Below, one piece after another: positions 14,594 to 47,457 of a DNA stretch of 64,000 nucleotides. Every line of letters begins with the position of its first letter. Position 1 is the first letter of the stretch. A program made the position numbers and the translations under genes. The DNA is taken from the IMG/VR virus record IMGVR_UViG_3300027762_000003, positions 16,028-80,027 of that record. One strand, 5' to 3'. The notes below the pieces were generated by a model that made no database searches, was not told the origin of the DNA, and was given only the letters and a program-made list of their open reading frames with translations. Source of the DNA: a virus.

Positions 14594-15187
14594 CTAAGCC
14601 GTGAGAAGGTCTTTTATTTTCCGTTTCTTGCGTACTTTTTTGATGTTCTCCTTGATGATTTTCTGGAGGCTCGGATCGCACCCAACCTTGGCAATAAGTT
14701 CAGACGAATTAACATCCCGATCGCTCTCATGTCCACAACAAGCGCAATGGTAGACGGGTTTGTTGATATCCATTTCTGGATCATAGGACAGGCACTGAGA
14801 GCAGATCCGAGATAAAGGTAAATCCGACGCAGGTTTTAATCGCGTCATCTTTTTGCCAAACTCTTGAGTTTTCTTGTCGATTAAGTCGATTTGCTGACCG
14901 ATCGCCGCGTCCAAATTACTCTTATTTTGACCCGCTAAAGCCGCTCCCGTCATCCTTGGCTTTGGCTTTGACTTTCCCTACCTTCTTCTGCAAGCCATCC
15001 TCAACTGCGATACCGGATGAATAGGTGGTCAGGTAAGAAGCGATGCGGTACTGGTGCGATCGCCGTCTGCGTTTCGTCTTCTCATGGATGCGTCTTATCC
15101 TCTGCTTACACTCCTTTACTCCTTGGGAATCACCGCAATGTTTCCACCGTAGGCGTTGAATAGTCCTGGGATAAGGGCTTCGAGGAT
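14594..15187 (-). pseudogene. tnpB: Truncated, frameshifted TnpB-family (IS200/IS605) nuclease remnant
   Basis: Upstream frame reads IQRLRWKHCGDSQGVKECKQRIRRIHEKTKRRRRSHQYRIASYL...IAVEDG...KAKAKDDGSGF then stops. A second frame reads AGQNKSNLDAAIGQ...SRICSQC...CACCGHESDRDVNS (zinc ribbon, RuvC-III). The N-terminal half including RuvC-I is absent. Confidence 0.85.
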
Positions 15188-15196
15188 TTTAAGAGG

Positions 15197-15521
15197 ATTG
15201 AGCAGGATCTAATACTCTCTTAGGGATTGAAACCGAACACCAAATCGCATTAATCACTGCCGAAATTCAGGATTCAATGGATCTAATACTCTCTTAGGGA
15301 TTGAAACGTAATCCTGATCAACCCAAGCTAAGGCATTAGCCAGATTCAATGGATCTAATACTCTCTTAGGGATTGAAACAAGCTTGTGGGTAGCTCGCAG
15401 ATCCCCATCAAGATGATTCAATGGATCTAATACTCTCTTAGGGATTGAAACTGTTGCGTGCTAAATTAGAATCATCAATTGAGAGATTCAATAGATCTAA
15501 TACTCTCTTAGAGATTGAAAC
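15197..15521 (+). CRISPR. CRISPR mini-array: 5 repeats of 37 bp and 4 spacers (37, 35, 35, 33 bp)
   Basis: Consensus GATTCAATGGATCTAATACTCTCTTAGGGATTGAAAC at 15271, 15343 and 15415; 5'-divergent copy at 15197; 2-mismatch copy at 15485. Spacers are unique. Orientation inferred from the ATTGAAAC 3' end. Confidence 0.97.
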
Positions 15522-15533
15522 GATTAAATCAAC

Positions 15534-15571
15534 AAAAAAAAGCGATCGCCCCCAAAGACGACCGCTTTTTT
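15534..15571 (-). terminator. Intrinsic terminator beside the array (pairs better on the minus strand, possibly bidirectional)
   Basis: A-tract, GCGATCG...CGACCGC, T-tract. Confidence 0.7.
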
Positions 15572-20578: not shown

Positions 20579-20710
20579 TCAAGAGCCACCTTTAATAATC
20601 TCCACAATATTTGGGATATAGGAGCGTCGATAGCCTGGTGCGTCAAAACTCAAGGCGACTATCGCAAAAGCGCAGCAGGCTATAATTATTCCTTTGCTTA
20701 TCGACCCCAT
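20579..20710 (-). CDS. 43-aa single-TM protein (not in the ORF track)
   Basis: Hand translation MGSISKGIIIACCAFAIVALSFDAPGYRRSYIPNIVEIIKGGS; overlaps the upstream stop and fills the gap in the operon. Confidence 0.45.
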   Translation of the reverse strand: MGSISKGIIIACCAFAIVALSFDAPGYRRSYIPNIVEIIKGGS

Positions 20711-20952
20711 GGCATTTGCACCGATGTAGGACGAATGGGACTTGTGTTGTTAGCGGCTTGATTGGCTCCGATATTTCCGATCCAATAAGCCGCGCCAACA
20801 AAGAAGCAAATAACGATAACGGAAGTGCCTACGACTTGCGACATAACCGAGAATCCACCGGCCACCGTATCGGTAACGGTGTGTGCCACATCAATCGTTG
20901 TTTTACGTTTCGCTAGACTTCCACCACGGGAAACCATATCAATATCTGCCAT
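20698..20952 (-). CDS. Small membrane protein
   Basis: One TM helix VVGTSVIVICFFVGAAYWI; starts 2 nt after the ATPase stop. Confidence 0.65.
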   Translation of the reverse strand: MADIDMVSRGGSLAKRKTTIDVAHTVTDTVAGGFSVMSQVVGTSVIVICFFVGAAYWIGNIGANQAANNTSPIRPTSVQMPWGR

Positions 20953-25461: not shown

Positions 25462-27735
25462 ATGCACAAAATAAACACTACTCAGAAAACACAACCGGAA
25501 GAAATCATCGGAGGCAAATCTAACGAGATTTCTGTAACTCGAAGAAACGGGTCGGTTGTGCCCTTAGATATTACGAAAATCAGAAGAGTTGTAGAGTGGG
25601 CGTGTGACGGATTGGGAGCCAGTCCCATCGTTCTTGAATCCGGTCTCTGTGTTCGCCTTTGTGACGGTATTTCAACTAAGAGTATTCAGGACAATTTAAT
25701 TAGCGTCTGCCTAGAGATGTGTTCCCCAGAAGAGCCTTATTGGCGTTATGTGGCTGGACGCTTACACATCTGGAGTTTGTGGAAAAATACCCTGGTTAGC
25801 CGTGGCTATCAATATGGGAATTATGCCGGATGGGTCAAGCACCAACTAGAGGCTAAGAAGTATGACGATCGCCTAGGCATCTATTCCAGTGAAGAACTAC
25901 AAGAAGCGGGTAGTTGGATTAATCCAGATTGGGATGCTGACTACGATTACGCTGGAGCCACCCTACTAACCCGGCGCTATCTTTTAGAGAATGAATTACC
26001 CCAAGAGGCTTTCCTAACTTGTGCGCTATTGCTTGCATCGGTAGAAGAACATCGCGATCGCCTGAAGTGGGCGCGTCAATTCTACGAGGCGATCGCCCAA
26101 CGGAAGCTCTCCCTAGCTACACCCATCCTTGCCAACCTCCGTATTCCCGGCGGCTCCCTCTCCAGTTGTTTCATCACCGCCATGGATGACAACCTAGAGA
26201 GTATCTTTGGGGTAATCACCGATACTGCTCGAATCTCTAAGAATGGGGGCGGTGTTGGGGTCAATGTAAGCCGTGTTCGGGCCACGGGTTCGGATGTGAT
26301 GGGACGTAGCAATGCATCCGGTGGTGTGGTTCCTTGGGTTAAGCTACTCAACGACACGGCGATCGCAGTTAACCAGGGTGGAAGACGGGCCGGCGCGGTC
26401 ACGGTTAGCCTCGATATCTGGCATCTAGATATCCTTGAATTCTTGGAGATGCAAACCGAGAACGGCGATCAACGGCGTAAAGCTTACGATGTCTTTCCTC
26501 AGTTAGTGATTACTGATGAGTTCATGCGGCGGGTTGATGCTAAAGAGGAGTGGACGCTCGTTGATCCCCATGAAGTAAAAACCAAGTTAGGTATTGACTT
26601 ACCGATCCTCTGGGGTGAGAAATTTGAGGAAGCCTGGGGAATCGTAGAAAGGGAGGTGGGGCGATCGCTCAAGCTTTATAACCGAATCAATGCCAGGGAT
26701 CTCTTCAAGACCATAATGCGTACCCAAGTGGAAACGGGGATGCCCTATCTGGCTTTCAAGGATACGATCAACCGTTTTAACCCGAATCAGCATCTGGGGT
26801 ACATCCCTGGGGTTAATTTATGTTGTGAAAGCTTCTCGAATGTAAGCCCTGGCAAAGAGGTACATTGCTGTAATTTAGTCAGCCTGAACCTAGCAAACTT
26901 GGAGATTGCGGACATTCCAGATCTATGCCGTGCGGCTGTACGAATGCTGGACAACACCATCGACCTAACTAACCCGCCGATCTCCGCCGCCGAAAACCAC
27001 AATAGTATCTACCGCACTATTGGAGTCGGGGCGATGGGTCTTGCCGATTGGCTGGCCAAGAGGGAATTGAGCTACTCAGACACCATGGCAATAGGGTTAC
27101 TTTTTGAGGAAGTCGCCTATTGGTGTACCCATGCTTCTATGGAGTTGTCCAAGACTAGGGGGTGGTATCCTGGATTCCCTGGTAGTGAATGGCAGAAAGG
27201 GAAAATCATTGGGCATGATGCCGAGTGGTTCAAGTACCATTCAATGATTCCGGATAGATGGCAGCATTTGGCGTATCTAATCCGGATTAATGGCATCAGG
27301 AACAGCCATATAACAGCAATCGCCCCTAATACCTCATCTTCCCTCGTCCAAGGCTGTACAGCGAGCGTTTTGCCCACGTTCAATCGATTTTTCTACGATA
27401 AGTCGTCTAAGGGTGGCGTGCCTGTCGCTCCTCCGTTCATCGACTCCCATTACTGGTACTACCAAGAGAGCCGGAACATGAATCAAGATGTGGTGGTGCA
27501 GGCGATCGCCACCATTCAACAATGGATCGACACAGGGATATCGATGGAGTTGCTCTTTAATCTGAACGAGGGCGTTTACTTCCCAGATGAACCGGAGCGG
27601 GCGCTTAAGGCGATCGATATTTTCGAGACGTTGATGCTGGCTTGGCGATCGGGGTGTAAAGCGGTCTACTACGTGAGAACTGTGCAGCGTGATGATTTCA
27701 AAGAGTCGGGCGGATGTAGTACTTGCGCTAATTAA
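25462..27735 (+). CDS. nrdA: Class I ribonucleotide reductase alpha subunit with ATP cone
   Basis: VTRRNG ATP cone, ATPILAN, LSSCF, NQGGRRAGA, GVNLCCE, CNLVSLN, IAPNTSSS, VYY, C-terminal CSTC. Confidence 0.96.
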   Translation: MHKINTTQKTQPEEIIGGKSNEISVTRRNGSVVPLDITKIRRVVEWACDGLGASPIVLESGLCVRLCDGISTKSIQDNLISVCLEMCSPEEPYWRYVAGRLHIWSLWKNTLVSRGYQYGNYAGWVKHQLEAKKYDDRLGIYSSEELQEAGSWINPDWDADYDYAGATLLTRRYLLENELPQEAFLTCALLLASVEEHRDRLKWARQFYEAIAQRKLSLATPILANLRIPGGSLSSCFITAMDDNLESIFGVITDTARISKNGGGVGVNVSRVRATGSDVMGRSNASGGVVPWVKLLNDTAIAVNQGGRRAGAVTVSLDIWHLDILEFLEMQTENGDQRRKAYDVFPQLVITDEFMRRVDAKEEWTLVDPHEVKTKLGIDLPILWGEKFEEAWGIVEREVGRSLKLYNRINARDLFKTIMRTQVETGMPYLAFKDTINRFNPNQHLGYIPGVNLCCESFSNVSPGKEVHCCNLVSLNLANLEIADIPDLCRAAVRMLDNTIDLTNPPISAAENHNSIYRTIGVGAMGLADWLAKRELSYSDTMAIGLLFEEVAYWCTHASMELSKTRGWYPGFPGSEWQKGKIIGHDAEWFKYHSMIPDRWQHLAYLIRINGIRNSHITAIAPNTSSSLVQGCTASVLPTFNRFFYDKSSKGGVPVAPPFIDSHYWYYQESRNMNQDVVVQAIATIQQWIDTGISMELLFNLNEGVYFPDEPERALKAIDIFETLMLAWRSGCKAVYYVRTVQRDDFKESGGCSTCAN

Positions 27736-27855
27736 TCTTTGAAAAAAAGGGGTTTTAGACCCATTCTTCTGACAATTAATCCCCAAAAAAAGAAACTAAA
27801 GCTTTCGTCTAAACAGATCGAAGCCCATCAACCCCCTGGAGCGATTCGGGGGTTT

Positions 27856-31677: not shown

Positions 31678-32691
31678 ATGAAATACATCGTAACGACAAG
31701 ATTTGCAGCGATCGCCCAGGTCAAAAAGTTCGCCATGGTAGATGGAACGGTGCCGGGATGGTTGGCAGCAAGTGGTGATGACTTGCACTATGATCACCAC
31801 CGGCCCGGCGGGGCGGATATCCAGATCTTGGAGATGGACACTGCTCCAATCCTGCGCGATACTGATGGTTATACCATCGTAACGACGCAAATAGACGCGG
31901 ATGCCTGCGTAGCGGCGGCATGGCTTCAGCTTAACGAAGATGAACGTCAGGTTAACCTGCGGAAATTATCGGCGATCGCCTATGACTGCGACCACCTTGC
32001 AGTTCCCAGTTACCTTGCTAACCTTTCGAGCTTCGCAGCGCAAGCAGTCGCTGCCATGAAGACCGGTTCATCAAGCCTAGTTAAGGAACTAGACTTGCCC
32101 GCCGACCGTAAGGGGTGGAGCGTCCTAGACAAGGAGGAGTACGCTTCTAAAGCGTTTGAGGCTGGCACACAAGCTATCCTTGACGCTTGCCGGGGAATTG
32201 CCCCATGGCCAGGAGAAAATGGGGAAGCGTCTGGGTACTGGCAGACCGTTGAGAAAAATGTTCAAATGATTTTGGATGGCGATCGGGTAAGCCTTTACAA
32301 AGGTTGCTTGATCTTTGATGGGAAAGGGCTTCAAGGGAAGTATATCGATCCAAGGTGCTGGTTACGGGCAGCGCAAGCAATGGGTATCCGCGACGATGCA
32401 CCCTTGCAGTCTCGGACGCTTTGCCCTATAACCCTTACTCAAAGGGAGGTTTACATTGAGGATACCTTCCAGGGTTACTCTTACACCATCGGGTGTATAC
32501 CGTTCCATCCCAAGCTCAACGAACTCGACTTCACCAGTGGGACATTTGATGCGCTTACTAAAGCGGAAAAATCAATTAATCCCCATGCTGATGGGTGGGG
32601 AGGACGCAAGACAGTTGGCGGATCTGGGTGGAATACTCCATCTAACCTTTCGCCGCAGGAAATTATTGATATAGCTGTTAAATGTTTTTAG
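31678..32691 (+). CDS. Divergent DHH-like phosphoesterase
   Basis: VDG, YDHH, TTQIDADA, DCDH, C-terminal GWGGRKTVGGS. Confidence 0.55.
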   Translation: MKYIVTTRFAAIAQVKKFAMVDGTVPGWLAASGDDLHYDHHRPGGADIQILEMDTAPILRDTDGYTIVTTQIDADACVAAAWLQLNEDERQVNLRKLSAIAYDCDHLAVPSYLANLSSFAAQAVAAMKTGSSSLVKELDLPADRKGWSVLDKEEYASKAFEAGTQAILDACRGIAPWPGENGEASGYWQTVEKNVQMILDGDRVSLYKGCLIFDGKGLQGKYIDPRCWLRAAQAMGIRDDAPLQSRTLCPITLTQREVYIEDTFQGYSYTIGCIPFHPKLNELDFTSGTFDALTKAEKSINPHADGWGGRKTVGGSGWNTPSNLSPQEIIDIAVKCF

Positions 32692-32819: not shown

Positions 32820-33410
32820 GTGCAATCCAAGGAAGCAAAAACAAGGATCAAAGTGTACCGATTTTACGGAATGCCAGCAACTACGGAACCCAGGTATGGA
32901 TTAATTTCGGCCATATCTTATGCAGTATTGATCTGCCGAGATCGTCGTCGAAGTCAGCTTCAAGGGACTAGCTTCTGGGAGCGATTTCACAAGTGTGTCT
33001 ATGATGCTGGAATCAGATCGACTAATCTCCTGGAGTATCCAGCACTCCTATGCCAAGGGGTGAGTTCAGACTTAACCCAGGCTATCCTCAAGGGATTGTC
33101 CATCCCTCTATCCGAATGCCCTGATATTCACCTCCCCATCCTCCCCACTGGAGAAGCGGGGGACTTGTTCACCCCCAACCAGTCCCCACTACTGACAGCC
33201 TATTGGGTAGAGACCGTGGCTAAATGCTGCAAACTCCACGGATATACAGAAGAGGATATTCTGGAAATTCCTAGGGATATCACCAAGTCGCAATGGGTAG
33301 CGGTCTCTTGTCGGGTCAGAAGAGAGGAGGATAAGGAGATAGCCAAGGTTAATAGTGATCGAGCCAAGGCACTGGAAGAATTGGAAACAATTGAAGTCGA
33401 GGTAAGTTAA
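32820..33410 (+). CDS. csf4: Type IV-B CRISPR small subunit (Csf4/Cas11-like)
   Basis: Helical protein with FWERF...A..RSTNL.EY...LC, directly before csf2; the start may be the GTG at 32853. Assigned largely by synteny. Confidence 0.6.
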   Translation: MQSKEAKTRIKVYRFYGMPATTEPRYGLISAISYAVLICRDRRRSQLQGTSFWERFHKCVYDAGIRSTNLLEYPALLCQGVSSDLTQAILKGLSIPLSECPDIHLPILPTGEAGDLFTPNQSPLLTAYWVETVAKCCKLHGYTEEDILEIPRDITKSQWVAVSCRVRREEDKEIAKVNSDRAKALEELETIEVEVS

Positions 33411-33412
33411 TA

Positions 33413-34576
33413 ATGGACTACGATATCCACGATCGCCGTCACGTCACTTATCACTGTGTATTCGATCTGCTCTCCCCCTTGAGCCACATTGGGGAAACTC
33501 TCGGTGGTAGCAATATCACCGTACTTAAACAAGCCAAACGCATCGCCATTGATGGGAGGGAGCGATCTCACTTCGTTTTTTCTTCCAACGCATTCAGAAA
33601 CGCCATATTTAGACGCAAGGGATTTGGATTTACCCTTGACGGATTAGGCGTGCAAGTTGACCCCACCACCCATCACACCCTTTTTGCAGGAGGGCGGATC
33701 GACTCCGGGACAGTTGCCAATATCGAGCTTGAAGACCAGTTTCGGCGCTGGCTTCCTGGCTTATCCGTACTCGGAACCGCCAAACCTAAAGACATGGGAG
33801 GGGAGAAAGGCTCCCAGATGATTAGTGGGCGGCTATCCGTAGGTGATGCTGTTCTTGTTTGTTACGAAACTATTAATTACATTTATCAGCAAGCGCCTGG
33901 ATTGATTCCCTATTCAATTTACTCATCCGTCAAGCGGATTATGGAGGCAAGGGAGGCGATCACTGCCGATATTTTTTCGCAACCGTCTCCAGAGGCGAGC
34001 GCTGCTTATGAGAAAGCACTGGAGGAGGAGCTACCCAAAATCAAGCAGCACTTGAAATCCTCTACTGCGTGCATTTCCACTAATCGCTTCTATCGCCGCG
34101 ATAGCGAGAGTGATCCTGATTTAGTGAAATACCTGAAAGCGCCTGAGCAGAAACTCATCGGCACTATCCCCGGACTTACGGAGGAAAAAAAGAAGCCGGT
34201 AGCAGAGAAACAGGAGTCTCGATTCATGGGAGACGACCACTTGATTGCTCCAGGCAACCAACTCTATAGCCGGATGGACATGCACGGCACGACTGTAGAG
34301 GAAGGATTTCTCTGTGCAGCGCTCCTAGAATTCGCCAAGCACCCTTATATAGGTGGTAAATCGAATCGAGGTAATGGGCACGTAAACTTGAGGATAAATT
34401 ACAAGGATCACACCATAGGGGAATCGGGAATATTGCTTTCGGTGGGAACCGACTACCAGCAATTAAGCGATCGCGCTCAAGAGAATTACCGTCGGTATTG
34501 TAATCATTTGGAGGAATTTAAGCACCATCTGGAATCCGCAGATTCTATGCCTAGACATCTTTTAGGAGGGAAATAA
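33413..34576 (+). CDS. csf2: Type IV CRISPR backbone RAMP (Csf2/Cas7)
   Basis: LLSPLSHIGE, SSNAFRN..FRR, HTLFAGG, LSVLG, MISGRLSVGDA, G-rich loop IGGKSNRGNGHV. Confidence 0.9.
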   Translation: MDYDIHDRRHVTYHCVFDLLSPLSHIGETLGGSNITVLKQAKRIAIDGRERSHFVFSSNAFRNAIFRRKGFGFTLDGLGVQVDPTTHHTLFAGGRIDSGTVANIELEDQFRRWLPGLSVLGTAKPKDMGGEKGSQMISGRLSVGDAVLVCYETINYIYQQAPGLIPYSIYSSVKRIMEAREAITADIFSQPSPEASAAYEKALEEELPKIKQHLKSSTACISTNRFYRRDSESDPDLVKYLKAPEQKLIGTIPGLTEEKKKPVAEKQESRFMGDDHLIAPGNQLYSRMDMHGTTVEEGFLCAALLEFAKHPYIGGKSNRGNGHVNLRINYKDHTIGESGILLSVGTDYQQLSDRAQENYRRYCNHLEEFKHHLESADSMPRHLLGGK

Positions 34577-34582
34577 ATAGAA

Positions 34583-35269
34583 ATGGAACCCATACAGATT
34601 ACCGCTTGGATGAGTAGCGCGATCGCGCTGCCCGACGATTGGTCGCCCGACTTGGTGGGCATAGTGATCGCTACCATATTTGATAAAGATCCTCGCCCTT
34701 TTCAAGAGGATTTATCCACACTTGAGGGGGTTCCCTTTGCTAAAACCGATTTAGGTTCCCCTCTACTTTGGTATTTTGCCTGCTCGTCCCCTTGCTACGA
34801 GCTACTTAGTGAAGAGGTGACCCGTTTCCGAAAACGCTGGGACGCTGATGACGGTCGGGTTAGCTGGGGTAAGCGCAAGCCCCAATTTAACGCATCGGAG
34901 GGGAGTGAGAAAAATTATGATCTCCCTCTTCCTCTCAGGGGAATGGAGCGGATCGATTGGTTCGCCATTGGAGATATCGGAGGCGCAGAGCGACTGCTCA
35001 AGCAAGTCACCCACCTAGGGAAAAAACGGAAAGGGGTTGTGGCGCGGTGGGTGGTGAAGGCAATCGCTCACGACTGGCATCTGTACCGCAACAACGAGCT
35101 AATGCGTCCTATCCCTATTAGCTGCAAGCGTCCCGAATGTCTTTCATACGGCATTCGGGATTGGGGATGGCGGCCCCCAATCTGGCTACCTAAGAATAAG
35201 GAGCGGTGTGCCATGCCGGTAATCACAGTAATCAAGCCATGGATGAACAATCAAGAGCAAGCTTTTTAG
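34583..35269 (+). CDS. csf3: Type IV CRISPR Cas5-like RAMP (Csf3)
   Basis: MEPIQITAWM, FRKRWD, IDWFAIGD...LL..VTHLGKKR.G.V..W.V, LMRPIP, RPPIW. Confidence 0.88.
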   Translation: MEPIQITAWMSSAIALPDDWSPDLVGIVIATIFDKDPRPFQEDLSTLEGVPFAKTDLGSPLLWYFACSSPCYELLSEEVTRFRKRWDADDGRVSWGKRKPQFNASEGSEKNYDLPLPLRGMERIDWFAIGDIGGAERLLKQVTHLGKKRKGVVARWVVKAIAHDWHLYRNNELMRPIPISCKRPECLSYGIRDWGWRPPIWLPKNKERCAMPVITVIKPWMNNQEQAF

Positions 35270-35931
35270 GATGGACTCAACTCCCTCGATTTAAGAAAAG
35301 AGTGGAGGAAGCCAAGCGAACCATCAATGAGGCACTGGCGATCGCTCCCTCCTATGTTGCGGTTAGTTGGGGAAAAGATAGCACCGTACTACTCCACCTG
35401 TGCCAACAAATCGATCCGAATATCAAGGCTATTTCACTAGGGAATCCGGATCGCTCTTTTTGTGGCTATGAGCAGGTAATTTCGGACTACTGCGATCGCT
35501 TCCCAACCAATCTCGAAACAATCGAAATAGAGGGAGATCACGTTCCCGACAAACTCAAGCAACTGCGACTGTGGGAGCGGTATCCTATGGCGATCGTAGG
35601 AGTACGGAAAGAGGAATCGCAATATCGCTCGATGGCTATTTCTCGTTATGGGCTGATCTACCAATTCACCAATGGCGAAAAGGAGGGAAGTTGGAGGTGC
35701 TTTCCTTTGGGATATTGGGGATGGCAAGATGTCTGGGGTTATATAGTGCAGCACGATTTACCTTATCTGAGTGCCTACGATCGCCAATCTTGGGAAAGGG
35801 GAAGGACGACTGACCATTTGAGTAAAAGCACTAAAAAGCGATGGCAGCGTACCCGATTAGAGGGATTAGCGTCCATCGCTCCTGAATACTATCAGTATTT
35901 GCTCAAGCAATACCCAGAAATGTTCAACTAG
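35239..35931 (+). CDS. CysH/PAPS-reductase-like PP-loop protein associated with type IV-B
   Basis: YVAVSWGKDSTVLL, GVRKEES..R, PL..W...DVW.YI....LPY...YD; no C-terminal ECGxH. Start placed at MDEQSR. Confidence 0.88.
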   Translation: MDEQSRASFLGWTQLPRFKKRVEEAKRTINEALAIAPSYVAVSWGKDSTVLLHLCQQIDPNIKAISLGNPDRSFCGYEQVISDYCDRFPTNLETIEIEGDHVPDKLKQLRLWERYPMAIVGVRKEESQYRSMAISRYGLIYQFTNGEKEGSWRCFPLGYWGWQDVWGYIVQHDLPYLSAYDRQSWERGRTTDHLSKSTKKRWQRTRLEGLASIAPEYYQYLLKQYPEMFN

Positions 35932-36256
35932 CTAGGACAAAATCGACCCCATTAGGGGTTACAATCCCATCCCCGTAGCTGACCGAAATAAACTCCAACC
36001 CTTCATGTCCAATATCGGAAAATCCATGAACTTGCCCGGATTCCTTATGGTAAAGATCCCCCTTCTTTATCTGGTGATTTTTGTCTCCATCAAACCAGAT
36101 CCCACTTCCTCTTAGGATTTGGATACTACAGGGTACTTCGTGACTATGGGGAGGGACTTCACCACCCTCTTCTATCCTCACCAGGAGGACTTGAGTATTG
36201 TAGCGATTGAAGATATTTTGAACGGTTGTTTTCTTGCACTCGTCAATCTCAAACAT
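35924..36256 (-). CDS. Cupin-domain protein
   Basis: GGEVPPHSH...ILRGSG...IKKGD....SGQVHGF. Confidence 0.85.
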   Translation of the reverse strand: MFEIDECKKTTVQNIFNRYNTQVLLVRIEEGGEVPPHSHEVPCSIQILRGSGIWFDGDKNHQIKKGDLYHKESGQVHGFSDIGHEGLEFISVSYGDGIVTPNGVDFVLAS

Positions 36257-36293
36257 ACACTAATCCAATTTTGTTGACCCATCTATTTTAACC

Positions 36294-36968
36294 ATGAATT
36301 ACTGTTATCTGTGCGGGAAAGACGGAGATCGCCCATTAGATCTTCCCAAAACATTCACCGCCCATAACCTAGCCAAAAACCCCACGTCTGACGTACTCTG
36401 TGATCGCTGTTACGGGACGATTGCAGGTGACGAAAAACAGCTCTACTACTGGAACGAGAACAAGAATCCGCCTGCATGGTCAAAGTTATGGGGGCGATCG
36501 CTCTCCAGGCTTTACGTGGGAGAAGAACTGAGATCACCCATCATCGAAGGAGAGCGGGAAGGTACGGCGATCGTCCACTCTTTACCCACTCGTGTAGAAA
36601 TCCGGCAATGGCTCATCAATCCACCTGAGCCACCATTTACAATCGCCATCTCGGTTTCAGGGCAAAAGCATATTTTACCTTTTGCCCAAGAAGCGCATGA
36701 TAGAGAGCGGTTTCCGATTCGATTTGAGTTAACCTCTTTGGAGGTCAACCGCCAAGAATTCACTCGCCTACTCGCTAATTTTGAAATGCTTTACGACATG
36801 GGATTGACTAAAGCGGAAATCCTTAAAGGCAATTACAGTGTGTCACGAGTGGCGGCGATTCCTTATGCGGATTTCCTGAAAAGAGAGGAGGAGATCGCGC
36901 AGTACCGTGGCACTGACCTGCTAGAGTTGGCGGCGTTTGTAGCGCAAAAGGAAGGGGCGATCGAGTAG
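36294..36968 (+). CDS. csf1: Type IV CRISPR Cas8-like large subunit (Csf1)
   Basis: CYLCG...FT.H.....P.SD.LCDRC zinc finger; LINPPEPPF.I.I..SGQKHILP. Confidence 0.85.
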   Translation: MNYCYLCGKDGDRPLDLPKTFTAHNLAKNPTSDVLCDRCYGTIAGDEKQLYYWNENKNPPAWSKLWGRSLSRLYVGEELRSPIIEGEREGTAIVHSLPTRVEIRQWLINPPEPPFTIAISVSGQKHILPFAQEAHDRERFPIRFELTSLEVNRQEFTRLLANFEMLYDMGLTKAEILKGNYSVSRVAAIPYADFLKREEEIAQYRGTDLLELAAFVAQKEGAIE

Positions 36969-37048: not shown

Positions 37049-38938
37049 TTAAAAATTAGTAGATCTCAATAACTCCAGTTCCCTCTCGCGTTTCTTACCT
37101 TCAATTAACTGCTGACTAAAATACTCATACTCTTTTAAGTCGAGCTTGACATTGATTTTCGCTATCTGTTCAGTAGCGTATTGAATGCGCTTTTTGCAGA
37201 TCAATTTTTCCACAGTTAACACCGCTTTCTCGATTGAAAGAATAGGCTTTTGAATATCCGATAAGTGTTTTTCCTGTAGGCATAATAATCTGTGGTACTG
37301 CTCACCAGCCTCTATGTATTCCAGTTCACTTTGCAGCCTAGAGATTAAATCGGTAGAGTCTATGGGCAGGCTTTCTTGTAATTCCTTGATCTGATTCCAG
37401 AGCGCTTGATGGTGGGGATACTGGAACGAGAGACGACGATCTCTCACAACCCGCAAGAAATAATCACGCGCTTCAGGTGCGTGGAGGTAGATTCGCAAAA
37501 TCAGACTCTCGGCTTCAAGTAGTAACCGGTCTTCTGGGTTGGACTCGATTTTGATTTTCGGAATACTGGGATTACTTCTAGATTGGGGAATGTGGCGTAA
37601 GCGCTGCACTTGCCTTGCCAAGTCTGCGGTAATCAATTTGAGGCGATCGCTGTTACCCCGGCTTAGATACTCACTACAGACCCCAATATAATAATTCCGC
37701 ATAGTAGGGTCATCGATTTTGCTTAAGACTTTTACCCAAGCTTGCGCTACCTCTTGGAATTCGTGAGCAGAACCGAGATCCTTACCTTTCATGGTTTGCT
37801 CAATCTGCCAGTCAATCCAGAGGGAAGCTTTCTGCACCAGGTCTAAATAGGCTTGATTTCCTGAAGATTTCAGAAACTCATCAGCATCTTTACTTTGGGG
37901 GAGACTAAGAATGCGAAGTTGGATTTGCCCTTGATAGACTAGATCCGCAATCTCTGAAATAGCGCGCCCTGTGGCCGTGGTTCCTGCTTGGTCGGTATCA
38001 AAATTGAGGATGATTACCTTGGAGTACCGAGCCAACCTCTTGATTTGGGAGCTACTCAATGCAGTACCCAAAGACGCGACAGACTCGGAAACGCCGGAGG
38101 CATGGAGGGCAATCGCATCGAAGTAACCCTCGACCACAATAGTCCGATCCTGCTTGACGATCGCCTTCTTGGCTTTGTCGAGTCCAAACAGCAGATTCCC
38201 CTTTTCAAAGATGGGGGTTTCTGGAGAATTCAGATACTTTGGCTTTGCATCCCCTAACGCTCTTCCCCCGAAGCCCACAACCCGCCCCTGGATATCGCAA
38301 ATGGGAATCATTAGGCGATCGCGGAACCGGTCATAATAACCAGAGGATTTGCGCTTAATCACCAACCCCGCTTTCTCAACCACGCTTACCGGATATCCCT
38401 TGACCTCTACCAAGTGGCGATAGAGGTCTTGCCACTCATTTGGTGCATAGCCCAATCCGAATCCCTGGATCGTCTCCCTGGACAAACCTCGCTGTTCCTG
38501 TAGGTAAGTTAGCGCTTTTGTCGCGTTGGGTTGATGTAGGGCATGTTGGAAAAAGTTGGCGGCGATCGCCATAACCTCAAACAACTGTTCATTCAGGGAT
38601 AACTGTCGTTGAAACTCCTTACTGTCCTGATTATCCATTGTGCGGATGGGGACTTCGTAGCGTTTTGCCAGATCTAAGGCTACTTCCCCAAACGAGCGAC
38701 TATCCAACTGTTTCAGGAAGCTAATGGCATCCCCACCCGCGCCACAGCCGAAGCAGTGAAAAACCTGCTTAGTCGGGCTAACGGTAAAGCTTGGACTCCT
38801 TTCGTCATGGAACGGACACAACCCGGCAAACTCACGCCCCTGTTTCTTCAGTACCACCCGCTCCGAGATGATCTCGACAATATCAATCCGTTGCTTGATT
38901 TCTTCAATGGTGTCGGGGTGGAGTCTAGGGATATTCAT
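37049..38938 (-). CDS. dnaG: DNA primase, bacterial (cyanobacterial-like) type
   Basis: MNIPRLHPDTIEEIK start, CPFH...CFGC zinc finger, DRFRDRLMIPI, KYLNSPET, VVEGYFD, FDTDQAG, KDADEFL. Confidence 0.96.
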   Translation of the reverse strand: MNIPRLHPDTIEEIKQRIDIVEIISERVVLKKQGREFAGLCPFHDERSPSFTVSPTKQVFHCFGCGAGGDAISFLKQLDSRSFGEVALDLAKRYEVPIRTMDNQDSKEFQRQLSLNEQLFEVMAIAANFFQHALHQPNATKALTYLQEQRGLSRETIQGFGLGYAPNEWQDLYRHLVEVKGYPVSVVEKAGLVIKRKSSGYYDRFRDRLMIPICDIQGRVVGFGGRALGDAKPKYLNSPETPIFEKGNLLFGLDKAKKAIVKQDRTIVVEGYFDAIALHASGVSESVASLGTALSSSQIKRLARYSKVIILNFDTDQAGTTATGRAISEIADLVYQGQIQLRILSLPQSKDADEFLKSSGNQAYLDLVQKASLWIDWQIEQTMKGKDLGSAHEFQEVAQAWVKVLSKIDDPTMRNYYIGVCSEYLSRGNSDRLKLITADLARQVQRLRHIPQSRSNPSIPKIKIESNPEDRLLLEAESLILRIYLHAPEARDYFLRVVRDRRLSFQYPHHQALWNQIKELQESLPIDSTDLISRLQSELEYIEAGEQYHRLLCLQEKHLSDIQKPILSIEKAVLTVEKLICKKRIQYATEQIAKINVKLDLKEYEYFSQQLIEGKKRERELELLRSTNF

Positions 38939-38976
38939 GGGAAGTCCGGAGGGCGATCGGGTATAATATAGAAGTG

Positions 38977-39610: not shown

Positions 39611-41093
39611 CATACAAGCCAGAATTAATGAAAAGCTTAATCGGAGGCGACAAAAACGCAGAGAAGGCAGGAGGTCACCACTAATTAAGCTTGAGCAAGC
39701 GATCTCCGACATCGATGGGCCAGTTGATTTCACACGCCAGATTCTTGGCATCAAGCTCTACCCCAAACAAGAAGAACTCTTAGCCGCGATCTGGCAACCT
39801 GGAGTTACCCACGTGGTGTTGTCACTCGGCAGACGTTCCGGTAAGACCACCATGGCGGCTATTTGTGCGGTTTATGCTGCAATCTGCTTGGGCGATCGCT
39901 ACCGTAAAGCGCTTGGTCTACGCTCCACGTTTAATATCCTCTGTATCGCCAACAAGGAGGCACAATCCAAAGTCGCGCTAGGGATGATTAGGGACTTAAT
40001 TCAGAAAGCGCCCCTACTCAAACCCTTAATCAAGCGCCAAGCAATGGAAACCCTAGAACTAACCAACGGGGCAATCTTTACGGCATCCCCCGCCTCATCT
40101 AGGGGTATCCGTGGGGAAGCATCACCCCTAATTATTTTCGATGAGTTGGCTCACTCCCTCGACACATCCGGAAACGCAGCCGGTGACCAACTCTATCAAG
40201 CGGTGGCTCCTGGCGCTGCTCAGTTCGGGAAGTACGCCAAGATTCTTATGCTTTCTACCCCATGGATTCAAGGGGGAATTTTTTGGGACTTCTATAACCA
40301 AGGGCAATCCCCCGATTACCCGTCCACGTTCTCTATTTCCTTGCCAACATGGGAAGTTAACCCCCATCTACCCTATGATGGGGAATTCCTCAAAGAAGAG
40401 CGCGATCGCGACCCATGGTCATTTAACATCGAGTACGGCGCTAACTTTGCCTCACCCGTAGGCGCTTTTCTCTCGTCTGATGACGTGGAAGCGTGCATAC
40501 TCAGAGAACATGCCAACCCCACCCCAACGAAGTCAGACCACTACTACACCCTTTCTCTTGACCCTGCTAAAGGTGGGCGGGATGAGTATGTAGCCTGCAT
40601 CCTCCACTGGGAAAAGGATGAGTGCATAGTCGATCGCTGGTATGTATTTGAGCCATCCGTCCAGGATGGTAAGCGGAAACTCGTAAGCGTGGAAGAAGTA
40701 GAGAATTGGATTATCGAGAGCGATCGCCGCTACCGGTTCCACAAGATTATCCTCGACCAGTACAACAGTCAAAGCACTATACAGAGCCTAAAGAAGCGCG
40801 GGTTACCTTGCCGTGAACTTCATTGGTCAGCCAAGTCGGTGACGGAAGCCTACACCAAACTAAGAAACCTGGTCATCTCTGGCAACCTAAACCTGTACCG
40901 GCACAAGAAGGCGATCGAACAGTTGAAGGGATTAATTGTGAGGTACAACAGCGTAGGCACAATGTCTATTAGCGGCGGTGACGGTGCGGGGGTTGACGAC
41001 TACTGCGCTGCTCTTGCCGGCGCTGTGTTGGTGAGTACGCCACCCAGACCGCCAGGGCGATCGGGTACGTTCTCGATGAGTATGTGGGGGTGA
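39603..41093 (+). CDS. terL: Terminase large subunit
   Basis: LYPKQ, GRRSGKT, IIFDE, LSTP, SLDPA, ILDQY, GVDDY. Confidence 0.93.
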   Translation: MISIQARINEKLNRRRQKRREGRRSPLIKLEQAISDIDGPVDFTRQILGIKLYPKQEELLAAIWQPGVTHVVLSLGRRSGKTTMAAICAVYAAICLGDRYRKALGLRSTFNILCIANKEAQSKVALGMIRDLIQKAPLLKPLIKRQAMETLELTNGAIFTASPASSRGIRGEASPLIIFDELAHSLDTSGNAAGDQLYQAVAPGAAQFGKYAKILMLSTPWIQGGIFWDFYNQGQSPDYPSTFSISLPTWEVNPHLPYDGEFLKEERDRDPWSFNIEYGANFASPVGAFLSSDDVEACILREHANPTPTKSDHYYTLSLDPAKGGRDEYVACILHWEKDECIVDRWYVFEPSVQDGKRKLVSVEEVENWIIESDRRYRFHKIILDQYNSQSTIQSLKKRGLPCRELHWSAKSVTEAYTKLRNLVISGNLNLYRHKKAIEQLKGLIVRYNSVGTMSISGGDGAGVDDYCAALAGAVLVSTPPRPPGRSGTFSMSMWG

Positions 41094-45184: not shown

Positions 45185-46528
45185 ATGCCCTATTCACCTG
45201 AAGTTAAATGGGATTTTTACCAAGGCGATCACGAAACAGCGATCGCCTACTGGAGTGGCCCCCGCCCATCCGAAACCCAACGCAGTGCCGACACATTTAA
45301 CCGGTATCTTGACCAGTCGATTAACACCTACAACATCATCAAGGAACTGGTGTCCCACTATGTGAACGCCTTAGTAGGTAAGCCATTCAACTATCCAGAA
45401 GATGAACTTCTATCTGAGTGGCTCCATACCCAAAGACGCTTATCCGCTTTCCGTCGTCGCGCCGACCCATTTATGGAGGCGGTCACACAAGCGCTAGTCT
45501 CTGGGCGATCGTTCATCCGCTTGTACACCCCGGAAAGATTCCAGAACTCTAAAAATTCCCTACTCCTAGTTACCCCGCACCTGTGCCATCTTCAAGACTC
45601 TAAGCCAGAGTACGATTCTGATGGATTCTTAAATCGATTCACCTATACCTATCGCGATTCAAAGGGCGGGCGAAAGCAAGAAGTATATTTCATTGATGAA
45701 TCGGGATACACTCACATCCTGGCTAATGGTGAGGAGATTATTGTCGATCGCCGTGGGATGATGCCTATCTTTGAGCTATCGGTCGATCCGGTAATCTCGG
45801 ATGCTGCCATCTGTGCCCAGAGAGCGCTTACCGTACTACTCACGATGTTAAATGAGTTTATCTGCTCTTCTGCCCTTCCTGAGCATATCGTCACCAATGC
45901 TCAAGTACCAGGTGAAATCATTGAAGATCCCGATCACCCTAGGGGACAACGGTTTGAGCCGAGACAAGATCTACTTGAGTTTGGGGCTAACCAGTTAGTG
46001 ATGCTCGATGGGAAACCAATCGGCGATCCAGATATGCCATCAGGGTTCACCAGTCCGTCCGTTTACTTCAAGGAACCGAGTAACCCGCAAACTTTTAGGA
46101 CTGCATTAGACATCCTCATGGAGACGGTTTATAGAGAGGCGGGATTGGGGCATTTACTGACGAGTGGAGATGGTTCATTGTCCGGGGTAAGTCGTGCCAC
46201 ACTAAAGTCCGACTTTGAGCTTCGACTAGGGAACTATAGGGAATATATTGAGGATTTCTTTAACGCTATTCTGGAGTATGTCTTGATTGAATTGGGGCAA
46301 AAAGACCCCTATGTAGAGACTCAATTAAATCTTGATACCGGGAATATTTTACCAGAGGAACGTAATGCAATCTTAGAGGAACTCAACTCAGGAATCCGAT
46401 CTCGTAGGTCTGCTATGCGGGCGCTCGGCATTGAAGACCCTGATGCAGAGGAGGAGCAAATACTACTGGAACAAAACCGGGATATGGGGGTGACCGATAT
46501 CCCGGATGAAGAAGCTACCCTCGATTAA
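45185..46528 (+). CDS. Portal protein
   Basis: 447 aa; N.IKELV...VNALVGKP, SGVSR, G..SRRSAMRALG..DPDAEEEQI (SPP1 gp6-like pattern). Confidence 0.8.
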   Translation: MPYSPEVKWDFYQGDHETAIAYWSGPRPSETQRSADTFNRYLDQSINTYNIIKELVSHYVNALVGKPFNYPEDELLSEWLHTQRRLSAFRRRADPFMEAVTQALVSGRSFIRLYTPERFQNSKNSLLLVTPHLCHLQDSKPEYDSDGFLNRFTYTYRDSKGGRKQEVYFIDESGYTHILANGEEIIVDRRGMMPIFELSVDPVISDAAICAQRALTVLLTMLNEFICSSALPEHIVTNAQVPGEIIEDPDHPRGQRFEPRQDLLEFGANQLVMLDGKPIGDPDMPSGFTSPSVYFKEPSNPQTFRTALDILMETVYREAGLGHLLTSGDGSLSGVSRATLKSDFELRLGNYREYIEDFFNAILEYVLIELGQKDPYVETQLNLDTGNILPEERNAILEELNSGIRSRRSAMRALGIEDPDAEEEQILLEQNRDMGVTDIPDEEATLD

Positions 46529-47183
46529 AGTTTAAGCGGGTTCTTTTTAGATAATCCCCAACTAGATCCTCTTTCTTGCTGGCCGGGCGATCGTTACTTG
46601 GTGCGCTTGGCAGCGATCGCTCCCGTGTTTGGGGTTCAGGTGATTCTCGCTTGAGCGCGGGGAGGAACATGCTGAGGGTCGGGTCACTGGCGATCGCCTG
46701 GGTTATTTCCTGAGATTGGTAATATGCTTTCCCTCCTGAAATCTCAATGCTGTCCACATCAATAGCCGAAATATTAGAGAGGATATTTGCATCAAACCCA
46801 GTTAGCCTACTCACCTCTTGCAGCGTGTATTTCCGGTTGATGGTTTGCAATTCTTGTCGGCTTTCCGCTAATTCATTCTTAGCCAGTTCCAAGTCTGATT
46901 TCATCCTTTGATTAGCCAGGTGTAAATCTCGTTTCTCTTGTGAGACTTTCTTCACTACCTGGTCAATGGAAATCGTCGGATCACTACCCTCTAATAGGCT
47001 TTGGATTTCTGATTGTGCGCTTGCCAACTCAGCTTCAGCCTTGCGCAACTTATCGTTCTTTTCCCTGATTTCACCAATAACTTTAGTCTTGCCGGATTCT
47101 AGTTCGGAAATTCGAGAGGCGATCGCGGTTTTTATTTCTTCATCCGCAATAGCCTCTAAGGCTTGTTCGTAATTGTAAGGCAT
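46515..47183 (-). CDS. Putative capsid scaffolding protein
   Basis: Coiled coil, Pro-rich linker and short terminal helix; lies between portal and capsid genes but inverted. Confidence 0.6.
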   Translation of the reverse strand: MPYNYEQALEAIADEEIKTAIASRISELESGKTKVIGEIREKNDKLRKAEAELASAQSEIQSLLEGSDPTISIDQVVKKVSQEKRDLHLANQRMKSDLELAKNELAESRQELQTINRKYTLQEVSRLTGFDANILSNISAIDVDSIEISGGKAYYQSQEITQAIASDPTLSMFLPALKRESPEPQTRERSLPSAPSNDRPASKKEDLVGDYLKRTRLNFNRG

Positions 47184-47457
47184 AGTATTTTTAGGGTTTC
47201 AATCTCTGATATTGAATTATCTATTAGAAATCGCCGGTTGATCTCACCAGCAAATTGTGGCTGCCAAGACTGCACCACCATACCCCCCGAAACCGGGGAA
47301 CATCCGAGGACGTTAGAATTATTATAACAGCAAAACAAAGACAATTAGAGTCAACGATTGCCCCACCCCCACCCGCATTTCTACGAGTGGGGGTGGGGCA
47401 ACAGAAAGCCCGGTTAACCACCGGGCTTTGGGCATATTTAATATTCGATTTATTGCA

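Follow-up and report, generated by a model that had tools for sequence, protein, structure and literature searches.

When a bacteriophage carries both a type IV-B CRISPR-Cas operon and a CRISPR array, does the array supply the guides on which the effector complex works, or do the two act apart? This question is raised by a stretch of 64,000 nucleotides, hereafter the window, which comprises bases 16028-80027 of the 80,027-bp IMG/VR virus record IMGVR_UViG_3300027762_000003 and in which a five-gene type IV-B operon at 32820-36968 and a four-spacer array at 15197-15521 lie 17.3 kb apart (all feature coordinates of this phage are given in window numbering). An earlier, sequence-only reading of this DNA had proposed that the array, processed by host Cas6, feeds the IV-B complex. 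On balance, we lean towards a different account, in which two separable modules sit on one phage, an array-independent IV-B operon and a host-dependent array of the kind known from cyanophage N-1. We prefer it because each module occurs without the other and because the surroundings and repeat of the array link it to a Cas12/TnpB-like relic and to the type I-D repeat family. The proposed coupling between array and complex is weakly supported.

The operon, which is complete and encodes no nuclease, consists of five genes.

32820..33410, plus strand: cas11/csf4, small subunit, 196 aa, assigned by fold (all-helical AlphaFold model)
33413..34576, plus strand: csf2, Cas7 backbone subunit, 387 aa (PADLOC typeIV_Cas7, 7.8e-33)
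34583..35269, plus strand: csf3, Cas5-like, 228 aa (PADLOC typeIV_Cas5, 7.2e-31; TIGR03116, 6.7e-7)
35206..35931, plus strand: cysH-like (CasCysH) PP-loop protein, 241 aa (Pfam PAPS_reduct PF01507, 8.5e-13)
36294..36968, plus strand: csf1, Cas8-like large subunit, 224 aa (PADLOC typeIV_Cas8 Csf1, 3.9e-26; TIGR03114, 6e-11)

All five open reading frames (ORFs) are intact and run in the same direction, cas11-csf2-csf3-cysH-like and then csf1, in agreement with the sequence-only reading; PADLOC and Pfam profiles identify four of them, and a fold match identifies cas11. The profile check which that reading had called for succeeded for Csf2, Csf3 and Csf1, with NCBIfam matches that fall below the curated cut-offs. 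The match of Csf2 to TIGR03115 is weak (5.7e-5), and a Csf2 profile built from 20 homologs matches the Csf2 of the type IV-B complex 7JHY at 1.6e-7 and the type IV-A Csf2 8RC2 at 1.8e-5. Csf1 bears a Cys-rich motif at its N-terminus. The check failed for cas11, for which no match came from profile searches of Pfam, NCBIfam and PADLOC or from one of PDB sequences, and Foldseek found nothing with its model; this gene was identified by structure instead. In an exhaustive structural search of 48,161 PDB representatives, the model, built from 17 homologs at moderate confidence (predicted local distance difference test, pLDDT, 66), matched 7jhy_h of 7JHY best (Z 8.8, root-mean-square deviation 3.3 A, 122 of 143 residues aligned), with the runner-up at Z 4.9. 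Moreover, the position of cas11 directly 5' of csf2 is kept across related viral loci. The cysH-like ORF, whose real start may be an ATG about 33 nt further downstream, also gives weak CysH, DndC and CysD matches. Its PP-loop motif, SWGKDS, belongs to a SWGKDS/SGGKDS pattern that is invariant in 15 homologs, and these form a short and a long subfamily by length.

The locus therefore has the composition of a type IV-B module, namely Csf2, Csf3, Csf1, a Cas11-like protein recognised by fold only and a CysH-like accessory gene, and it is free of DinG, Cas6/Csf5, Cas1-Cas2 and any array of its own. The absence of cas1, cas2, cas6/csf5 and dinG, claimed earlier for the window, extends to the entire 80,027-bp record, in which profile searches with working positive controls found no Cas6 (TIGR01877 and PF10040), no Cas1 or Cas2, and no DinG-type Helicase_C_2 domain.

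The closest studied counterpart is the Csf complex of Mycobacterium sp. JS623 (7JHY), which likewise combines Csf1, Cas11, Csf2 and Csf3 with a CysH-like gene and likewise has no Cas6, DinG, adaptation genes or adjacent array. The two differ in their carrier, a tailed cyanophage here and a megaplasmid there, and in gene order, since csf1 stands first in JS623, as in 14 of 19 cellular-genome loci, and last in cas11-csf2-csf3-cysH-csf1. In the JS623 complex, crRNAs (CRISPR RNAs) made up about 0.12% of bound reads and were not enriched (Zhou et al. 2021, PMC7937560). This is the only published test in which a IV-B complex was co-expressed with Cas6 and an array (PMC7937560), and its outcome argues against array-derived guides in the present case as well. 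By analogy with this one studied complex, Csf2 and Cas11 of the phage would assemble into a filament on RNA not provided by the phage, either host crRNAs or other cellular RNAs, and the CysH-like PP-loop enzyme would be an accessory. From the same analogy we infer that the role of the IV-B module is likely to lie in counter-defence or in competition between mobile elements.

If the operon acts without an array, phages with the former and without the latter should be found. The carrier itself is cyanosiphovirus-like, and the cyanophage label that it had received is well supported: the HIP1 octamer GCGATCGC is present in 82 copies, with 1.2 expected, and the nearest isolate by terminase is the Synechococcus siphovirus S-CBS4 (41% identity), so the host is taken to be a cyanobacterium. 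Homologs of its Csf2 number at least 177 in metagenomes, and tblastn found none in 50,697 deposited phage records. A single-protein Csf2 scan of viral contigs yielded nothing; an alignment-based scan gave 49 loci on IMG/VR virus contigs and 19 in cellular genomes. Within the reach of each contig, the 49 viral loci share the order cas11-csf2-csf3-cysH-csf1, which recurs on two short contigs from Spirulinaceae and Dolichospermum metagenome-assembled genomes (MAGs); the viral loci and these two contigs are mostly rich in HIP1. When the two MAG-binned contigs are left out, csf1 comes first in 14 of the 17 remaining cellular loci. Csf2 is 25-29% identical to full-length bacterial matches versus 36-45% to other viral-contig copies. 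By these sequence comparisons, the operon marks a distinct phage-borne IV-B clade.

Thirty of the viral records, taken whole, form with this phage (G000) a set of 31 records, many of which are fragments. The IV-B operon is the sole module common to all 14 whole records that were compared with this phage. The relatives otherwise have few genes in common with it and none of its labelled head or tail genes, and the window terminase has no relative in the 30 records. An array finder requiring three exact 12-14-mers spaced 45-100 nt apart detected arrays in 12 of the 31 records. Among the eight complete or near-complete genomes, four carry arrays (G000, G003, G004 and G020) and four do not (G018, 95% complete, and the direct-terminal-repeat G019, G021 and G022). 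The count of arrays in IV-B cyanophages suggested by the sequence-only reading thus cuts both ways, as arrays are frequent and yet half of the complete or near-complete genomes do without them. Cas6 is absent from all 31 records.

Nine records (G004, G005, G006, G007, G009, G010, G013, G014 and G024) combine an array of 5 to 28 repeats with a preceding Cas12 protein of 622-627 aa, Cas12p. In G006 this protein (L079:13443-15311) is identical over 613 aligned residues to a PDB 9JFS chain, which is Cas12p. In G006 and G009, cas12p and the array are separated by a conserved region resembling a trans-activating CRISPR RNA (tracrRNA), with a clear anti-repeat in G009. The arrays without Cas12p, in this phage, G003 and G020, belong to three unrelated repeat families. 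G020 has an intact 467-aa Cas12f/V-U-like gene directly adjoining a five-repeat array (L091:17192-19184), and G003 has two mini-arrays in opposite orientations with a strong hairpin repeat (L101:6072-6427 and 14646-15010), near which PADLOC recognised no cas gene in four ORFs.

In the window, the surroundings of the array are described by three features.

15197..15521, plus strand: CRISPR array without cas genes, five 37-nt repeats ending ATTGAAAC, four spacers
15536..15571, no strand assigned: terminator-like hairpin straight after the array, with an A run and a T run on its flanks
14594..15190, minus strand: Cas12/TnpB-like pseudogene, frameshifted and 5'-truncated, abutting the array

The array is as it had been described, with four spacers of 33-37 nt at 15234-15270, 15308-15342, 15380-15414 and 15452-15484. 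Three of its five repeats have the same sequence and a fourth reaches 95% identity, while repeat 1 has a degenerate 5' end (81% identity). By homology, the guide strand is the plus strand and transcription runs rightward. The hairpin behind the array was called on the minus strand, and its flanking runs suggest that it may serve in both directions. On the other side of the array, the 119-aa ORF 14594-14953 (minus strand) corresponds to the C-terminus of PADLOC Cas12u2 (positions 355-441 of 445, 5.2e-24) and also matches Pfam Cas12f1-like_TNB, covering the zinc-ribbon and RuvC-III part. A RuvC-II-like stretch upstream of it, in a different frame, was read from the translation and has no profile match. 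The gene is dead, because it is frameshifted and its N-terminal two thirds are missing; its broken 5' end meets the degenerate repeat 1. Intact homologs are found in G020 (467 aa) and G018 (581 aa). Beside the window array there is thus only a frameshifted C-terminal fragment in place of an intact RuvC effector, and no tracrRNA anti-repeat such as that of G009, as complementarity within about 1.5 kb does not exceed chance. A tblastn search of this phage genome for Cas12p gave no match. Since the array adjoins this wreck, it probably arrived within a type V-like unit or through recombination there.

The repeat itself points to a different processing machinery. Large arrays of the same 3' repeat family are present in many of 401 sampled cyanobacterial genomes, and the closest repeats among them show 2-3 differences in the last 22 nt. 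In one genome (G330), an array of 85 repeats, whose last 17 nt are identical to those of the window repeat, comes after a full Cas3d-Cas10d-Cas7d-Cas5d-Cas6d-Cas4-Cas1-Cas2 operon. Because of this identity, the window repeat is assigned by sequence to the cyanobacterial type I-D (DR5) family; the matching 3' half includes the hairpin and the ATTGAAAC handle. Repeats of the I-D (DR5) family thus occur here on a phage without processing or adaptation genes.

The same situation is known from cyanophage N-1, which lacks cas genes and whose array, of five 37-bp DR5 repeats and four spacers, is transcribed in infection (PMC4916379); its repeat is cleaved in vitro by host Cas6 (bioRxiv 10.1101/2020.04.14.041012). 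The likeness is close, as both phages carry five 37-bp I-D/DR5 repeats ending GGGATTGAAAC and four spacers with no known target, and both lack processing and adaptation cas genes. They differ in that N-1 is a myovirus without IV-B and that the hairpin of the window repeat is weaker; moreover, expression and Cas6 cleavage are demonstrated for N-1, whereas for the window array they are predicted from sequence. The part of the earlier proposal according to which a host type I-D Cas6 could cut the array is therefore upheld by the repeat family and, by analogy, by N-1. In the two-module account, the array would be transcribed rightward and probably cut by host Cas6d 8 nt before each spacer. The resulting crRNAs would carry the 8-nt 5' handle AUUGAAAC and would load mainly into the host I-D interference complex. 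In effect, the phage would borrow host machinery against rival elements, as has been proposed for N-1.

The same surroundings could also be those of a functionless array, the decaying relic of a type V-like unit that has lost its effector. We regard this as rather improbable. It would explain the frameshift in the neighbouring Cas12/TnpB-like gene and the loss of that gene's N-terminal two thirds, the degeneracy of repeat 1 at the junction, and the failure to find an anti-repeat, a target or a clear promoter; intact Cas12-like genes do adjoin arrays in relatives. However, three identical repeats out of five and a fourth at 95% identity are unexpected under neutral decay, and a terminator follows the array immediately. 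The repeat is of the Cas6-processed I-D family and not of a tracrRNA-requiring kind, and the N-1 array, identical in layout, is expressed and processed. Furthermore, the pseudogene diverges from the array, while in intact type V loci the gene lies upstream on the same strand.

The converse of the operon survey concerns arrays of this family on phages without IV-B. An exact IMG/VR scan for two GGGATTGAAAC ends at array spacing yielded 56 loci of GGGATTGAAAC-family arrays. In the 49 array records outside the IV-B set, Csf2 was found in none (positive control 5.5e-193), and neither was Cas6. Sixteen of the 49 have a Cas12-like protein of 590-635 aa and one more a weak 399-aa match, so that about 32 hold cas-less arrays; ten of the 49 are at least 90% complete. 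With complete IV-B phages that lack arrays, 49 array records that lack Csf2 and 17.3 kb between the two modules here, the claim that the array feeds the IV-B complex is not sustained. Independent distribution of arrays and IV-B loci had been named in advance as the finding that would tell against coupling, and the outcome is a mixed one, as the two are largely separable in both directions while arrays remain frequent in IV-B phages (12 of 31).

Several observations weigh against the two-module account. The frequency of arrays in the IV-B clade is far above expectation for phages generally, with the limit that these record counts are not phylogenetically independent, are uncorrected for relatedness and include many fragments. 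In the nine Cas12p records, all of which contain HIP1, the Cas12p/array loci lie only 0.9-7.9 kb beyond csf1. In G004 an array is found 870 bp after csf1, and one of its spacers perfectly matches an intergenic site in the same genome. For the window array, no convincing sigma-70-like promoter is seen just upstream of its 5' side, its four spacers have no identified target in the searches made, its hairpin is weaker than that of the host repeat (-4.1 versus -9.9 kcal/mol, z -0.07), and no identical repeat exists in the 401 sampled cyanobacterial genomes. Cleavage by host Cas6 is thus not assured, because the hairpin is weak and an identical host repeat is missing.

The searches for targets were of different depth. 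The four window spacers have no self-target in the phage genome with up to 9 mismatches, no protospacer in the 50,697 deposited phage records (just repeat-like or chance matches) and none in 50 related records. In IMG/VR no match was obtained with 26-nt exact cores of each spacer, a scan that is blind to mismatched protospacers. Among 112 unique spacers of relatives, the sole strong matches are two perfect self-matches in G004, a 95-kb direct-terminal-repeat genome, made by spacers from its arrays at 71478-71928 and 77864-78179 (L074-L078). One lies at 36438-36470, between divergent ORFs, and also counts among the points unfavourable to independent modules, as an intergenic match would suit a guided binder without nuclease activity. 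The other lies at 20702-20738 within a 4,694-aa ORF and has, by hand reading, a 5' flank of GGT; the published protospacer adjacent motif of Cas12p is GTN (bioRxiv 10.1101/2025.01.20.633832). These self-matches could reflect self-regulation or the targeting of near-identical rivals.

Such observations are the basis for a split guided system, in which host Cas6d cuts the array and the crRNAs load the phage IV-B complex, which would then bind without cutting. Its targets would be matching nucleic acids, DNA or RNA, either of competing elements or, in a regulatory role, of the phage or the host. We consider this unlikely. The array and IV-B share a genome that encodes no further effector, IV-B phages repeatedly carry arrays, of three unrelated repeat families, without intact Cas12p beside them (G000, G003 and G020), and G004 combines an array 870 bp from csf1 with a perfect self-match in a divergent intergenic region. 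The same idea is also in print for Fuxivirus, a Bathyarchaeia virus whose IV-B locus holds a mini-array; virus-encoded guides were proposed for it and no protospacer was found (PMC10848311). Against it stand the arrayless half of the complete IV-B phages and the 49 array-bearing viral records without IV-B, the distance of 17.3 kb to an array that adjoins a Cas12/TnpB-like pseudogene, and the failure of the published IV-B complex to take up crRNAs (PMC7937560). In addition, an intact 467-aa Cas12f-like gene belongs to the G020 array, Cas12p with a tracrRNA anti-repeat accompanies nine others, and the three repeat families offer no common handle for a single Csf3 to read. For the lineage as a whole, it is likewise doubtful that IV-B acts as a guided, nuclease-free binder that silences rivals or regulates genes with guides from phage arrays. 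That these guides would come from arrays beside Cas12p, from arrays beside small Cas12-like genes and from orphan arrays alike is an equally tentative proposal. The footprint of such a binder would be the repeated linkage of IV-B and arrays (12 of 31) and the G004 intergenic self-match.

Fuxivirus also bears on how novel the combination is. Like the present phage, it encodes IV-B with a CysH-like gene and a small array and has no adaptation module; unlike it, it is an archaeal virus with a mini-array of two repeats and one spacer inside the locus, whereas here the array lies 17 kb away beside a pseudogene. What is established here concerns the gene identities, the missing genes, the family of the repeat and the occurrence of operon and arrays across relatives; processing by host Cas6, the complex that is loaded and the function of IV-B are inferred. 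The concept of a virus carrying both IV-B and an array is not new, because a virus-borne IV-B locus with a mini-array, together with the same hypothesis, had already appeared (PMC10848311), and the description of this locus as a rare chance to identify IV-B guides was overstated for the same reason.

Repeat-like sequences are also found outside the array. A solitary unit at 47196-47232 (minus strand) is identical to the array repeat at 23 of 37 positions, has its last 12 nt in common with repeat 5, and ends 12 nt short of the start codon of the ORF 46515-47183. In other phages, unannotated stretches about 81% similar to the window repeat region occur in PP681321.1 (about 40406-40445) and in further Microcystis MaMV phages; each match consists of two pieces, and these may be repeat-like units or mini-arrays of myoviruses.

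A decoy function would give the repeats a role without targets. The array and possibly the solitary unit would tie up host Cas6 or I-D subunits as an RNA anti-CRISPR, and the IV-B complex would add a second layer by soaking up host crRNAs. The window repeat does mimic the host I-D family, the solitary unit (23/37 identical) is followed after 12 nt by a start codon, RNA anti-CRISPRs in the form of solitary repeats and mini-arrays of phages have been published (PMC10651486), and IV-B filaments bind RNA with no sequence preference (PMC7937560). However, the solitary unit is a single match where about 0.6 per window are expected by chance at the same stringency, and a decoy needs no four distinct spacers of normal length. 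This explanation is, in our view, very unlikely, and the two-module account is preferred to it.

Around the operon, two further genes deserve description. The gap between the cysH-like gene and csf1, in a further difference from JS623, holds a 110-aa antisense ORF (35924-36256, minus strand) with GxxxxxHxH-type motifs that looks cupin-like by eye; in other loci this gap is empty or holds a forward 230-aa ORF. The second gene lies directly 5' of cas11.

31678..32691, plus strand: DHH/DHHA1-fold phosphoesterase, 337 aa (fold model pLDDT 92.5)

Profile searches of Pfam, NCBIfam and PADLOC gave no match for this ORF. Its best Foldseek match is the PAP phosphatase 8A8K (E 1.3e-5, probability 1.00), followed by GdpP, PggH, NrnA and RecJ, and it has invariant DHH-type motifs. 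A hidden Cas6 was considered for this position and is ruled out by the DHH/DHHA1 phosphoesterase fold. At least 279 homologs occur in cyanobacteria, where they are widespread, and in phages. Among the IV-B relatives, a homolog adjoins the array in G007; the distance between homolog and operon is about 9 kb in G007 and G009 and about 4 kb in G022. It is conceivable that the modelled enzyme is linked to the CysH-like enzyme through pAp or AMP products, or that it degrades signal nucleotides.

As for the rest of the genome, the 80,027-bp record has direct terminal repeats of 122 bp, and the window encodes a large terminase, a portal, a major capsid protein, a MuF-like head protein and a tape-measure protein of more than 1,950 aa, as well as ribonucleotide reductase, a sliding clamp and DnaG primase. 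A 20-kb DNA search of the 401 cyanobacterial genomes returned, among the matches listed, only homologs of nrd and dnaG (25685-27736 and 37087-38941), at 63-75% DNA identity. The best-matching genome, G376, reaches 73% for dnaG and 71% for nrd, which hints at the host lineage or at the donor of these genes. Rfam contributed no family at gathering score in the whole window.

The wider significance of these findings lies in the lineage rather than in this one phage. Type V-P, with Cas12p as a "Cas12 hacker", was described from phage MAGs whose hosts were left undetermined, and neither 'type IV' nor 'Csf' occurs in the preprint text (bioRxiv 10.1101/2025.01.20.633832). The Cas12p loci of the IV-B relatives have a tracrRNA anti-repeat and arrays of similar repeat type, whereas the window has neither Cas12p nor an anti-repeat and only a fragment of a different Cas12/TnpB-like lineage. 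The comparison points to a IV-B/V-P island and to cyanobacterial hosts for the Cas12p phages, which are placed here on HIP1-rich, cyanobacteria-like contigs in close linkage with IV-B. The cyanophage IV-B clade seems to be new, and so does its linkage to Cas12p. If the modules are independent, as is held most likely, the present phage is an ordinary case of two known phage strategies on one genome. As its array is small, distant and beside a dead gene, it suits a test less well than relatives such as G004 and G006, which have arrays a few kb from the operon and, among them, a self-matching spacer. For the question of what type IV-B systems do, a lineage in which they repeatedly share the genome with arrays offers natural candidates for their RNA partners that can be tested at the bench.

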